This document shows, piece by piece, positions 6,786 through 48,038 of a DNA stretch of 50,845 nt. The notes beneath the pieces are model-generated. The model ran no database searches and was not told the origin of the DNA. It worked only from the letters and a program-made list of their open reading frames with translations. Numbering within the stretch: the first letter of the stretch is position 1; the number at the start of each line of letters is the position of its first letter. The DNA lies in contig JADGNU010000003.1 in NCBI GenBank assembly GCA_017883305.1, positions 1-50,845 of the forward strand, in the 5' to 3' direction. The position numbers and the translations under genes are program-made. This DNA is from Candidatus Aminicenantes bacterium. Lineage in GTDB: Bacteria > Acidobacteriota > Aminicenantia > Aminicenantales > Saccharicenantaceae.

Positions 6786-8240
6786 TCAGGCTGATAGGCC
6801 GTCGATGACCGCCGTCAGGAACTTCCAGAACTTGTCGACCGACCCGATGTGGACGTGCTCTTCGGGCGAGTGCGGATTCTTCATGGTTGGCCCGAACGAG
6901 ATCATATCCATGCCGGGGAACTTCTCGCCGATGATGCCGCACTCGAGGCCGGCGTGGATGGCCACGACCTCGGCTTCCTTGCCGAAGGTCTTGACGTAGA
7001 GCTCTTTCAGCTTCTTGAGGAGAGGGGAGTCGAGGTTGGGCATCCAGCCGGGGTAGCCGTTGTCGAACTCGGCCTTCGCGCCGGCCAGGGCGCAAACGGA
7101 CTTGATGACATCGCGGGTGGCCTCGAGGGCCGAGGCGACCGAGCTCCGCGTGCTGCAAAGGACGGTGAACTCCTTCTTGCCGGTCTTAACGATGGCCAGG
7201 TTGGTCGAAGTCTCGACCAGGCCGGCGATCTCGGGGTGCATGGCGATGACGCCGTGCGGGATGGTCATGAGGAAATCGATCAGCGTGTGCTGGCAGTCCT
7301 GGGTCAGGGCGAAATCCTTGCCGGCCGCCGCTCCCATGGTGAAGGCCACGCCGGGCTCAACAGCTTTGTACTCGATCTTGATCTTATCGAACGCCTTCGT
7401 GATCGCCGTGGTCAGCGACCGGACCTGGACGGGCGGGCAAGCCAGCACAGCGACGGCCTCTCGGGGAATGGCGTTATGTTTGCTGCCGCCCTCGATGCTG
7501 ACGACCTCGAACTTGGCTGTCGCCTGCGCCTGATCGAGTGCGCGGGCCAGGAGCTTGATGGCGTTGCCGCGGCCCTGGTTGATGTCGATACCGGAATGGC
7601 CACCGCGGAGACCGTGGACGTGGAGCTTGGTGAGGTTCTTCGAGGCCGCCTTTTTCCGTGCGAGCGGCAGGACCAGGGTCGAATCGGCCCCGCCGGCGCA
7701 GCCGATGGTGAAGATGCCCTCGTCCTCGCTGTCAAGGTTGAGCAGCATCTTGCCCTTAAGGAAGCCCTTCTGGATCTTGTTGGCCCCGGTCAGACCGGTC
7801 TCTTCGTCGACCGTGAAAAGGAACTCGAGAGGGCCGTGGACAAGGGTCTTGTCCTCCATGACGGCCAAGGCCGAAGCCAGGCCGATGCCGTTGTCGGCCC
7901 CGAGCGTCGTGCCCTGGGCATAGACCCAGTCGCCCTTGATCTCGGGCTGGATCGGGTCCTTGCAGAAATCATGGACCTTATCGGAGTTCTTCTCGCAGAC
8001 CATGTCCAGATGGCCCTGAAGAATGGCGCCGACGGCCTCTTGGCGTCCGGCGGTAGCCGGCTTGCTGACGAGGACGTTGCCGACCTTGTCGCGCTTGCCG
8101 GGGAGGCCGAGCGAAGCGGCCACCGAAAGGACATAGTCCCCAAGGGCCTTTTCGCTGCCCGAGCAGTGGGGAATGGTCAGGATCTTGGCGAAATGCTTCC
8201 AGAGAAGCCGGGGATTGAGCTCGTTGAGAGACGAAGCCAT
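6786..8240 (-). CDS. pepD: Aminoacyl-histidine (Xaa-His) dipeptidase, M20C
   Basis: Motifs LQGHLDMVCEK, TTLGADNGIG, TVDEETGLTGA, NLDSED, GGHSG, IHAGLECG, HSPEE. Start at ATG 8240 after SD AGGAG. Confidence 0.93.
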   Translation of the reverse strand: MASSLNELNPRLLWKHFAKILTIPHCSGSEKALGDYVLSVAASLGLPGKRDKVGNVLVSKPATAGRQEAVGAILQGHLDMVCEKNSDKVHDFCKDPIQPEIKGDWVYAQGTTLGADNGIGLASALAVMEDKTLVHGPLEFLFTVDEETGLTGANKIQKGFLKGKMLLNLDSEDEGIFTIGCAGGADSTLVLPLARKKAASKNLTKLHVHGLRGGHSGIDINQGRGNAIKLLARALDQAQATAKFEVVSIEGGSKHNAIPREAVAVLACPPVQVRSLTTAITKAFDKIKIEYKAVEPGVAFTMGAAAGKDFALTQDCQHTLIDFLMTIPHGVIAMHPEIAGLVETSTNLAIVKTGKKEFTVLCSTRSSVASALEATRDVIKSVCALAGAKAEFDNGYPGWMPNLDSPLLKKLKELYVKTFGKEAEVVAIHAGLECGIIGEKFPGMDMISFGPTMKNPHSPEEHVHIGSVDKFWKFLTAVIDGLSA

Positions 8241-45137: not shown

Positions 45138-46583
45138 TCAGGACGCGGCCAGCTTCTTGTAGAGATCGAGGTAGGCGGACGCGGATCGCTCCCAGGAGAA
45201 GTCCGCGGCCATCGCGTTGCGGACAAGCTTCCGCCAATCGATGGGTTTCTTGAAGAGGGCCCCCGCGCGCCCCGCCGCTTCGACAAGCGGCTCGGGTTCG
45301 GCTTCGACGAACTTGAACCCGTTGCCGTTCCCGACCTGCGGATCGAACTCCTGGACGCTGTCGTCGAGACCGCCCGTGGCTCTGACGACAGGGATCGTGC
45401 CATACTTCATGGCGTACATCTGGGTCAGCCCGCAAGGCTCATAGCGCGAGGGGATGAGGAAGATATCGCTCCCGGCGTAGATCGTGTGGGCGATCCGCTC
45501 GTCGAAGGCGATCTTGAGGCCGATCCGGGTCGGGTTCTTCTCTTGGGCCTCCAGCAGGAAATCCTGGATCTTCTGGTCGCCTGTGCCGAGAATGACCAGC
45601 GTCAATCCGAGGCCGAGAAGATCTTGGAGGGCTTCGCAAACGATGTCGAGGCCCTTCTGCCCGGCCAGGCGGGTGACCATGCCCGCGACGGGAAGAGTCG
45701 TCGGCGCGGCCAGGCCGAAGAGGGCCGCGAGCTCCTTGCGGCAGGTTATTTTCCCCGTCAAGTCCTCGGGCACATAGTTGCGAGGAATGAGATGGTCGGT
45801 GGCGGGATTCCAATCGCGGTAATCGACGCCGTTGAGGATGCCGTAAAGGACCGCGGACCGGGAACGAAGGAGGCCGTCGAGGCCGCAGCCGAACGCCGGC
45901 GTCTGGATCTCGCGGCTGTAGCGAGGGCTGACCGTCGTCACGGCGGTCGCATAGAGGATGCCGGCCTTGAGGGCATTGACCTTGCCGTAGAACTCGAGCT
46001 CGTTCATGTTGAAGAGCGAGGCGGGGAGCCCGATGCGGTCGAGAAGTTCGTCGTCGAACAGGCCCTGGTAGGCCAGGTTGTGGATGGTGAAGAGCGTCCG
46101 CGTCCGCGCGAAAAAGGCATCCCCCGCATAGACATAGCGGAGATAGGCAAAGACCAGGGCCGACTGCCAGTCGTGGCCGTGAACGATGTCGGGCGAGTAG
46201 CGCATCGCCCTCATGGTCTCGATGGAGGCCCGGCTAAAGAAGGCGAAACGCTCGCCGTTGTCCGGATAATCCCCGGCCGCGGTCCCGTAAAGGCAGTCCC
46301 GGTCGAAATACTCCGGCCGGTCGATGAAATAGACTGTGACGCCGTCGGCCCGGTGGGAGAAGACGGCGTAGGCGAGCTTCTCGCCGCCCATCTCGAGCTC
46401 GGCCCGCTCGATGACCGGCGTGAGCGGGATCTTCTTTTTCCGCACCTCCCGGTAGAGAGGCATGAACGCCCGGACTTCGGCGCCGAGCCCGGCGAGGACC
46501 TTGGGCAGGGCCCCGGCCACGTCGGCCAGGCCGCCCGTCTTGGCATAGGGGATGACTTCGGAGGCAAGGAATGCGACTTTCAT
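45138..46583 (-). CDS. glgA: Glycogen synthase (ADP-glucose)
   Basis: Motifs AKTGGLADV, HGHDWQ, TIHNLAYQG, TVSPRY, GILNGVD, RLAGQKG, PSRYEPCGLTQM, TGGLDD. Confidence 0.96.
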   Translation of the reverse strand: MKVAFLASEVIPYAKTGGLADVAGALPKVLAGLGAEVRAFMPLYREVRKKKIPLTPVIERAELEMGGEKLAYAVFSHRADGVTVYFIDRPEYFDRDCLYGTAAGDYPDNGERFAFFSRASIETMRAMRYSPDIVHGHDWQSALVFAYLRYVYAGDAFFARTRTLFTIHNLAYQGLFDDELLDRIGLPASLFNMNELEFYGKVNALKAGILYATAVTTVSPRYSREIQTPAFGCGLDGLLRSRSAVLYGILNGVDYRDWNPATDHLIPRNYVPEDLTGKITCRKELAALFGLAAPTTLPVAGMVTRLAGQKGLDIVCEALQDLLGLGLTLVILGTGDQKIQDFLLEAQEKNPTRIGLKIAFDERIAHTIYAGSDIFLIPSRYEPCGLTQMYAMKYGTIPVVRATGGLDDSVQEFDPQVGNGNGFKFVEAEPEPLVEAAGRAGALFKKPIDWRKLVRNAMAADFSWERSASAYLDLYKKLAAS

Positions 46584-46649
46584 GGTCCGCCTATTCTAGC
46601 ATAAGTACGCATGGCGGTCATCCGGACGCCCTTTCTCCTCGCTCATCAT

Positions 46650-47127
46650 GCCGCGGCGATTCTTCACGCCCCTCTGAGTCAGGCCCTCTGGCAGATCTCG
46701 CTGCATGGACTTCTCGGCTCGGGGCGTGCCGCTCCGTCGGGTCGCGGGTTTGGCCCGGCGCGCCAAACCCGCTCGGATCCGGGCCTCGCTCTCCTCTGGA
46801 TCCGTGCCCGCTTCGGCCCTCCCACGCCCTCCTCCGGGCATCGCCCCTGCGCCACCTTCCTTAACGCTCGATCTGCCCATCAAGTCCGGAATGTCGAGCG
46901 ACTCCACTAGAGACAAGACGACCGCTGAAACTGGGGTCGAGGGGGTCATCTGAGCGAGCATAAGCGGTGATTTAGCCGGTCCGGAGTCGGATGAGGGCAG
47001 TTTCAGAGGAAACCGCCAAAACGTGTTTGAGCGAGGCGTAGCGCACGCCGAGCGAGTTGTTTTGGCGCCGAGTCCGACGAACGGACCGGCGTGAAGAATC
47101 ACCGCAGCGAACGAAGATGATCCCCGA
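46650..47127. other. Structured non-coding element (MITE-like repeat or ncRNA) made of two folded modules
   Basis: Multiple nested perfect stems, plus a 21-bp inverted repeat (19/21) at 46650-46670 and 47088-47108. No credible ORF. Confidence 0.6.
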
Positions 47128-47130
47128 GGG

Positions 47131-47832
47131 CTAATTGATGATGCGGAGCATGCGGCTCCAGCGGGCCTTGGGGACGAAGCTGACCAGCTTCTTGAGGCGG
47201 TCGCGGATCCCGGTCTTCTGCCAGGCATCCCGCTCGGCCTTGTAGGAGAAATAGATGACCCAGGGCCGGCCCTTGATGGACGCCAGCGGCACGAAACCCC
47301 AGTAGCGGCTATCCATGCTGTTGTCGCGGTTGTCGCCCATGACGAACAGGTTCCCGGGCGGCACGGTCACGGGGCCATAGTTGTCGCGGATGACGTCGTC
47401 GTAGTTGTAGAAATCGTTCTTGGAGTTGACGTGGCTGTCGATGTGGACCTTATAGGGCTCGTCCAGCGGCTTGTCGTCGACGTAGACCTGCTTGTCCTTG
47501 ACCTCGACCTTCTGTCCCTCGAGCGCGATGACGCGCTTGACGAAGTCCTTGGTCAGGTCCTTCGGGTACTTGAAGACGACGATATCGCCCCGCGCGATCG
47601 GCTTATGGGGCAGGATCGTGCCCTCGAGCGGCAGGAGGGGCCTGGTGTAGGCGAGCTTGTTGACGAGCAGAAAGTCGCCGACGAGGAGGGTCGGCTCCAT
47701 GGAGCCGGTCGGGATCTGAAAGGCCTGGACGACGAAGGTCATGACGAAAAAGACGAAAACCGCCGTCTCGGCGATCAGCTCGAAGTATTCCCTGAAGAGG
47801 CTCTTGTCTCTTTTCTTCTTGTCCTTGTCCAT
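47131..47832 (-). CDS. lepB: Signal peptidase I
   Basis: Single TM; IPTGSMEPTL (Ser), FVKRVI (Lys), MGDNRDNSMDSRYWG. Confidence 0.95.
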   Translation of the reverse strand: MDKDKKKRDKSLFREYFELIAETAVFVFFVMTFVVQAFQIPTGSMEPTLLVGDFLLVNKLAYTRPLLPLEGTILPHKPIARGDIVVFKYPKDLTKDFVKRVIALEGQKVEVKDKQVYVDDKPLDEPYKVHIDSHVNSKNDFYNYDDVIRDNYGPVTVPPGNLFVMGDNRDNSMDSRYWGFVPLASIKGRPWVIYFSYKAERDAWQKTGIRDRLKKLVSFVPKARWSRMLRIIN

Positions 47833-47856
47833 GTCTCTCCCGGCTATAAAAATAAT

Positions 47857-47885
47857 ATTATAAAGGAAAACTCGAGGAAGGGCAA
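47857..47885 (-). promoter_or_regulatory. Sigma70 promoter for lepB
   Basis: Minus strand TTGCCC-N17-TATAAT. Confidence 0.65.
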
Positions 47886-47938
47886 GACGGATTCGCCCTG
47901 ATCGCCGGCCTAACCTATCCGCAGGTCCGTCCCGAACC

Positions 47939-48038
47939 GGAATTCCTGGGACACAATCCTGGAAAATTCCCGGGACACAATCCCATTTCCATAGAAATGG
48001 GTTATGTCCCGAATTTTACGGTCATGTCCCGGAATTCC
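47939..48038. repeat. Nested GGGACA/TGTCCC inverted repeats (REP/REPIN-like), copy 2
   Basis: AATTCC(T/C)GGGACACAATCC twice in tandem, a central hairpin CCCATTTC-CATA-GAAATGGG, then ATGTCCCG(G)AATT twice. Confidence 0.7.

Follow-up and report, generated by a model that had tools for sequence, protein, structure and literature searches.

The ERIC or IRU elements are imperfect palindromes over their whole length of 100-200 nt, lie in intergenic DNA and exist in larger forms that carry extra sequence at fixed internal sites; their copies are old and largely immobile, and they are thought to act as transcribed RNA hairpins. The attC sites of integrons fold strand-specifically as single-stranded DNA, have conserved unpaired bases and a variable terminal structure, and stand in one-directional arrays between cassettes. 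In Bertels and Rainey (2011; PMC3116915), REPINs are REP doublets that form hairpins and go with RAYT transposases, BIMEs are mosaic combinations of REP types, and the ERIC or IRU elements of the Enterobacteriaceae are named putative MITEs. The hairpin described in the present study is one copy of an old, vertically inherited, dispersed, non-coding and modular palindromic repeat family that is restricted, among the genomes sampled, to a single order. The family is undescribed; literature searches on Aminicenantes palindromic repeats and MITEs, on REPIN, RAYT and hairpin, and on ERIC returned no description of it. Its kind, the palindromic repeat, is familiar, and its conservation goes beyond the ordinary.

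The element lies between lepB and glgA in the window, the whole stretch of 50,845 nt that was analysed, and its genome (G000) is a metagenome-assembled genome of 358 contigs and 89.8% completeness. Both genes are on the minus strand, which bears out the antisense placement proposed in an initial sequence-only reading; only 4 nt separate the lepB stop codon from the element's right end, and the element is located about 350 nt upstream of glgA (Table 1). When folded as RNA with ViennaRNA, the + strand formed a single nested rod with a side hairpin, in which every pairing listed by that reading was present at its coordinates and was recovered. The minimum free energy was -100.9 kcal/mol against a mean of -63.4 kcal/mol (sd 4.0; z -9.4) for dinucleotide shuffles, none of 200 of which folded as well, and the minus strand of the same interval folded more weakly (-84.5 kcal/mol, z -7.1). 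The extent given in that reading was right for the rod itself, but the repeat unit reaches slightly further left, to about 46916. No match was obtained with Rfam 15 over the whole window at gathering thresholds, and a search of the region 46000-48000 at E up to 10 gave just three chance-level hits of 16-18 bits, so that the earlier failure to assign the element to a known RNA family stands. No terminator-like site (a G+C-rich stem followed by a T run) was found in 46550-47250. A hammerhead-like reading of CUGAGCGAG...GAAAC, made by eye only, was rejected for its wrong spacing and for want of a match to any Rfam ribozyme model.

Table 1. Coordinates of the features discussed (positions in the window unless a contig of G000 is named)
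Feature	Position	Strand	Remarks
glgA (glycogen/starch synthase)	45138-46583	-	
Promoter-like site of glgA	46621-46593	-	
Degenerate composite of the same repeat system, inverted	46620-46900	-	shell-A arm remnant near 46640-46680 plus two other modules
Two further repeat modules	46692-46787 and 46829-46876		copies on contigs C154, C53, C247, C301, C285
Left half of further outer helix layer	46916-46936	+	similarity to C242 and C94 copies begins at 46916-46918
Hairpin element (about 190 nt)	46937-47127	+	full-length match (positions 1-191) to covariance model R1: 228 bits, E 6.5e-60
Shell A of window copy	46937-46970 and 47093-47127	+	encloses core
Outer helix P1, 5' arm	46941-46951	+	pairs with 47115-47125
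Conserved GA-rich internal loop, 5' side, GAGCGAGCAT motif	46952-46963	+	faces 47106-47114 (CAGCGAACG motif)
Helix P2, 5' arm	46964-46973	+	pairs with 47096-47105; GATTT part invariant
Inner core module, 123 nt	46971-47092	+	long stem, three-way junction, GAGCGA/GAGCGA loop, apical hairpin
Side hairpin of core	47000-47013	+	
Apical hairpin GGCGT-AGCGC-ACGCC	47035-47049	+	
Outer helix P1, 3' arm	47115-47125	+	pairs with 46941-46951
lepB (signal peptidase I; Peptidase_S26)	47131-47832	-	PF10502, E 1.5e-52
Copies with about 170-nt element in apex	C94:1584-1897; C283:3578-3877; C214:17800-17976; C329:1-140		
Inverted repeats at RAYT-like genes	C185:7165-7197 and 8056-8088; C329:6116-6149 and 7180-7215; C308:3728-3798		

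The copy-number check proposed with the sequence-only reading was performed by BLAST and showed a multi-copy element that is not unique to this locus, with 18 pieces at 14 loci in G000. The covariance model R1, built from an alignment of 66 full-length copies, gave 10 matches in the same genome; several copies lie at contig ends, and the copy number is low, at about 10-30 per genome. By BLAST, the family was detected in 24 of 24 genus genomes searched and in none of 16 genomes from other families of the order. The R1 search found it in 61 of 151 genomes, belonging to 24 of 60 genera and to six of the nine families of the order; the 150 genomes taken from elsewhere in the phylum, 11 belonging to the same class, yielded no match and doubled as a specificity control for the model. 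Exact-motif matches in public genomes amounted to at least 116 stretches with titles naming Candidatus Aminicenantes or Acidobacteriota MAGs, and among the matches listed a few were titled uncultured Eubacteriales, uncultured bacterium or Chloroflexia. Viral contigs searched with two conserved motifs gave no match. Distant genera carry elements of 90-240 nt with the same helix order and loop motifs and an apex that ranges from nothing to about 90 nt. A described family, or homologues lacking and a folding energy no better than that of shuffles, had been named beforehand as grounds for giving the claim up, and none of these was found.

The family is modular, the 123-nt core being set in either of two outer shells, A (as in the window copy) or B. 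Among 132 distinct cores with enough flanking sequence, shell A enclosed 75 and shell B 52, the remainder having variants of shell B (4) or shell A (1); a naked core was not found among these copies. Shell A is also found without the core, closing on a small inner hairpin (115-150 nt in all); in genome G004 this is its commonest form. Many copies have an extra helix layer outside the shell. The window copy keeps the left half only, and the region of the lepB stop stands in place of its right partner. The sequence of P1 differs among copies with compensatory changes (four of six pairs of helix 2 were changed on both sides), as did six of ten pairs in P2 (helix 4), a region with an asymmetric GTGAAG loop on its 3' side. 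The columns of the GA-rich loop between P1 and P2 are invariant or nearly so and are kept in other genera. Inspection of the sequence shows that the GA-rich internal loops consist of words that face themselves, CCGAGG opposite CCGAGG and GAGCGA opposite GAGCGA. In antiparallel orientation such words give G.A, A.G, G-C, C-G, G.A and A.G, i.e. tandem G.A pairs around Watson-Crick pairs, and the GAGCGA/GAGCGA loop of the core is of this tandem G.A type. Tandem G.A pairs are stable in RNA and in DNA alike; on the minus strand the same words turn into pyrimidine mismatches.

The variable site of the family is its apex, in which other repeats also land. In four G000 copies the core apex is replaced or split by another element, about 170 nt long, which in two of the four begins directly after the GTAGC of the apical loop; this position agrees with, although it does not prove, insertion into a loop exposed as a single strand. 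The apical TAGCG loop resembles what we take to be a plasmid single-strand-origin motif; this idea was dropped, the apical hairpin being missing in other genera.

There is strong support for selection acting on the structure of the + strand. In the 66-copy alignment, standard pairs occupied 97.6% of the cells against 91.5% (sd 0.2) in 500 shuffles, and 32 of 59 pairs were changed on both sides, compared to 12.7 (sd 1.7) in the shuffles, none of which reached any of the observed measures. Related sequences can exceed shuffles without any structure, and a control in which partners were slid by 1-3 columns, together with counts of pair types, is therefore the safer guide: at most 13 pairs were changed on both sides in the slid control. 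The fourth pair of the apical hairpin (alignment pair 113-121) was G-C in 32 and U-A in 33 of the 66 copies, and one P1 pair was G-C in 24, A-U in 22, C-G in 8 and G-U in 8. The covariation that had been looked for is thus present, and the GA-rich loops are nearly invariant while the helices covary. Conserved loops span the full length of the element; the outer helix is its most variable part, and conservation is not confined to the ends. Conserved loops over covarying helices make the family more RNA-like than REPINs, ERIC-type elements or MITEs.

The preference for the + strand, which had been proposed from one copy, was found family-wide using an alignment of 71 copies. The + strand was the more stable in 71 of 71, by a mean of 15.8 kcal/mol with RNA parameters and 5.8 kcal/mol with DNA parameters, and the consensus fold had -73.7 kcal/mol and 59 pairs on the + strand against -37.4 kcal/mol and 39 pairs on the minus strand. 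In paired columns G:T was seen 200 times and A:C 22 times (110 and 20 without two near-fixed wobble positions); this count is biased towards G:T by the structure having been predicted on the + strand, and folding energy is the unbiased comparison.

The copies are old, and most have been inherited without a change of locus. Identity was 85.2% between paralogues within a genome (35 pairs), 85.7% between orthologous copies (51 pairs) and 82.8% between other pairs (1750), and the nearest neighbour of a copy was usually found at the same locus in another genome, lying in the same genome for just 2 of 61 labelled copies; neither a recent burst nor concerted evolution has therefore taken place. Copies at the same locus were compared in 6 locus groups (25 copies). 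Among 459 differing pair positions, 170 were changed on both sides and 148 on one side with pairing retained, so that 318 stayed paired, and 141 were unpaired in one copy. Divergence was 16% in loops versus 56% in the flanks, which were crudely aligned. Either each copy is kept foldable in place, or loci are occasionally overwritten from other copies. The lepB copy of the window is up to 93% identical to copies at other loci versus 84-88% to lepB-locus copies of other species, which indicates that overwriting of loci occurs too.

The region downstream of lepB was surveyed in 30 genomes of the genus. About 14 of them have the element at this position and 3 have single-arm remnants; in 4 the next gene follows the lepB stop, either at once or with a short promoter spacer in between. 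Several more, among them the two closest relatives, G051 (LepB 99.6% identical) and G005 (98%), have a spacer filled with other palindromic repeats. At two further G000 element loci G051 has a different short spacer, and at a third the element is present in both. The orthologous spacers of G051 and G005 were inspected for an empty site; they were wholly replaced and showed no clean empty site, footprint or boundary.

Orientation relative to the neighbouring genes was determined for the 71 copies from gene calls based on a simple codon-usage score. The flanking genes were arranged (-,-) in 14, (-,+) in 11, (+,+) in 9 and (+,-) in 3 copies, several of the (-,-) cases being lepB orthologues, and 34 copies lacked a call on at least one side; five other genera were likewise mixed. 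A scan for sites revealed no promoter-like or terminator-like site of the element's own, and its flanks are not conserved. The right end often abuts a TTGAC box that resembles the -35 of the downstream promoter (e.g. L003, L004, L032, L046 and L155), and the element may be a marker of the border that separates the end of one gene from the promoter of the next, or may be tolerated nowhere else.

These arrangements bear on whether the selected molecule is RNA. A multi-copy structured non-coding RNA transcribed from the + strand, with the GA-rich loops as protein-binding or tertiary-contact motifs and the helices as scaffolds, would act in cis on the stability or processing of neighbouring transcripts or in trans; we regard this as possible, if rather unlikely. 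It would account for an architecture and loop motifs kept over the entire order with covarying helices, for G.U and tandem G.A pairs being possible on the + strand only, and for copies that stay intact over long periods, with paired positions and loops retained beside diverged flanks. Contigs from three metatranscriptome runs in two studies (X15, X17 and X18) also cover the element, but they are strandless, give neither ends nor level, may derive from DNA carry-over and have a summed depth that pools many copies and organisms; those that start near the apex reflect the usual behaviour of assemblers at palindromes. Transcription from the neighbours is a poor match to a + strand RNA. The right neighbour reads into the element in 22 of 51 called cases, which would give the minus strand, a + strand product of read-through from the left neighbour is expected in only 13 of 38, and 11 copies lie between divergent genes. 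Conserved promoters and terminators, conserved flanks and an Rfam family are likewise wanting, and 10-30 copies per genome, swapped shells and arm remnants at loci would be unusual for an RNA gene. Since the strand preference is kept whatever the direction of the neighbours and there is no promoter of its own, the form under selection would be the + strand single-stranded hairpin, more likely as DNA than as RNA.

A host DNA signal, either a folded single strand or a protein-bound site, was also considered, for example a priming or fork-related signal, a BIME-like site for nucleoid proteins, or an insulator that separates the end of a gene from the promoter after it. Such a role would agree with the many copies in which the right end abuts a stop codon or a -35-like TTGAC box, with long persistence at orthologous loci and with a strand preference that is independent of the direction of transcription. 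A duplex protein site, however, would not favour G:T over A:C, and closely related genomes are without the element at the same loci. In G020, the well-assembled relative used for comparison, strand counts were 10:2 and 6:3 on the two large contigs, but GC skew in twenty 20-kb samples tracked local gene direction and gave neither a replichore pattern nor a readable replication polarity with which these counts could be compared. We consider this role improbable.

Compared with the known systems, the element has the REPIN traits of being extragenic, multi-copy and a long single-stranded hairpin with compensatory changes, of long vertical inheritance, and of repeats that insert into or beside existing repeats (PMC3116915), and its host genomes carry RAYT-like genes with flanking repeats of their own. 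It does not, however, appear to be built as a pair of short conserved REPs with a free spacer between them. Its arms pair, yet conservation is spread over internal loops along 190 nt while the outer helix varies; it has a three-way junction, two alternative outer shells and a low copy number, and it was beside none of the 32 RAYT-like genes examined, although adjacency to a RAYT gene defines REPINs. Like ERIC, it is an intergenic imperfect palindrome over its whole length with internally enlarged forms and old, largely immobile copies, but its orientation to transcription is not fixed; the likeness is one of description, and a relation in sequence is not expected. As in BIMEs, few palindromic modules are combined, but those of BIMEs form tandem or alternating arrays whereas the present ones are nested, one inside the apex of another. 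Strand-specific folding of single-stranded DNA, conserved unpaired bases and a variable terminal structure are shared with attC sites, from which the element differs in that its copies are single and scattered over many contigs among housekeeping genes (lepB, glgA, thrS, efp).

Inverted-repeat structure, multiple copies, intergenic placement and presence or absence between genomes would also suit a classical MITE, i.e. an insertion sequence that has lost internal sequence but has terminal inverted repeats and is flanked by a target-site duplication. The sole flanking direct repeat, CCGAGG, is constant; it is seen at both ends, as a target duplication would be, because it is part of the rod, where it is self-paired by tandem G.A. 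Conservation is lowest at the ends of the element. No arms far enough apart to hold a gene were found in five well-assembled genomes (G004, G020, G050, G051 and G044; widest span about 280 nt), which leaves the element without an autonomous relative there, and no transposase-like ORF recurred beside 73 loci, where just orthologous housekeeping genes were seen. A MITE of this kind is accordingly highly improbable.

A partner enzyme was sought among the RAYT-like genes of the genus, in which 37 of 42 genomes have PF01797 (1-6 hits each; about 100 loci listed). Of the four G000 proteins, all but that of C185 were scanned against NCBIfam, and the best hit of these three was REP-associated tyrosine transposase at 56-62 bits (below the cut-off of 80). 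Short inverted repeats of their own flank the G000 genes on C185, C329 and C308, and for the remaining G000 gene they flank eight orthologues. These repeats are multi-copy, distinct from the hairpin and different for each RAYT type examined, and those at C185, C329 and C308 had 8 to 30 other hits in G000; the three G000 genes with flanking repeats show the REP-RAYT layout in textbook form, here in Aminicenantes. One RAYT-associated repeat family occupies the lepB spacer in G051 and G005, and the 170-nt apex module holds a small palindrome that also adjoins a RAYT-like gene in G004 (L222:1279-1314). The hairpin itself was present at none of 32 RAYT-like or IS200-like loci taken from the roughly 100 listed (about 1.5 kb on each side; BLAST, and R1 at E up to 1). 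Y1_Tnp occurs in 127 of the 151 genomes of the order, including an element-free genus (g15: Y1_Tnp in 17 of 17 genomes, element in 0 of 17), so that its presence is uninformative at the family level, and eight element-bearing genomes had no Y1_Tnp hit.

A gene for a small GIY-YIG protein (103 aa) is located at C215:5715-6023 of G000 and is found in 17 of 42 genomes of the genus and patchily over the order. The small nuclease was rejected as a partner because it is neither adjoining nor co-distributed over the order. By BLAST, modules of the element were at none of 30 GIY-YIG loci (17 of them small genes), and R1 found none at the 17 small-gene loci; gene and element were present in 8 of 8 versus 2 of 8 genomes of g3, 3 of 3 versus 0 of 3 of g4, and 0 of 5 versus 5 of 5 of g9.

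The account towards which we lean is that of a non-autonomous structured DNA repeat of REPIN/ERIC-like kind, acting as a single-stranded hairpin. The sequence-only reading had offered a novel non-coding RNA or a non-autonomous mobile element selected for structure; novelty and selection for structure hold, and the repeat element, with putative mobility, is favoured because of its multiple copies, modularity and presence/absence behaviour. Single-stranded DNA would be supplied by replication, or by a copy-out/copy-in step as with HUH/Y1 enzymes of the IS200 and RAYT types. The element would duplicate rarely, persist very long at its loci and be kept foldable by selection, and its exposed apex would serve as a landing pad for the true RAYT-associated repeats of the genome. 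Several observations do not sit easily with a REPIN/ERIC-like repeat: no partner was found at the RAYT-like loci, the distribution of Y1_Tnp does not match that of the element, and target duplications, clean empty sites and a recent burst are lacking. The outer helix is most variable, whereas the ends are usually best conserved in elements recognised by a transposase; conserved loops and covarying helices over the full length have the look of a functional RNA, and the metatranscriptome contigs, although strandless and open to DNA carry-over, cover the element. A bolder proposal, which we regard as doubtful, is that the family, instead of being a passive repeat, is a new class of functional structured nucleic acid peculiar to one order, every copy being preserved by selection where it sits. 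It would be either a multi-copy non-coding RNA of about 170-240 nt, with tandem-G.A loops that are conserved and a three-way junction, or a single-stranded DNA element for an enzyme other than a neighbouring RAYT.

For most families of palindromic intergenic repeats it is not known whether DNA or RNA, and which strand, is selected. Here the signal is unusually clean: in every copy wobble and G.A pairing point to the same strand, the whole order shares the architecture and loop motifs, and the copies are old enough for compensatory change to be followed at orthologous loci. The system is suited to asking how repeats persist without an obvious transposase, whether as parasites, domesticated signals or RNAs. 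In practical terms, the family breaks Aminicenantes MAG assemblies, as seen from the copies at contig ends, and should be masked or modelled in annotation.

The family also marks places where rearrangement has occurred, the lepB-glgA junction being one. In the closest relatives (L164, L165, L193 and L194) a helicase-like gene comes after lepB and a divergent NUDIX-like gene before glgA, both labels being our own reading of the sequences. G000 joins the lepB and glgA contexts, and the junction (46620-47130) is filled by the hairpin and the degenerate inverted composite; the adjacency of the two genes is, judging from this gene order, a rearrangement. In G005 the same two modules as in the composite are enclosed by a shell-A hairpin, also upstream of glgA. 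The lepB spacer of several species (L169, L172, L173, L179, L183 and L188) repeatedly contains short GGGGAC...GTCCCC-type palindromes, which are similar to the flanking repeats of RAYT-like genes of the C308 and C305 types.
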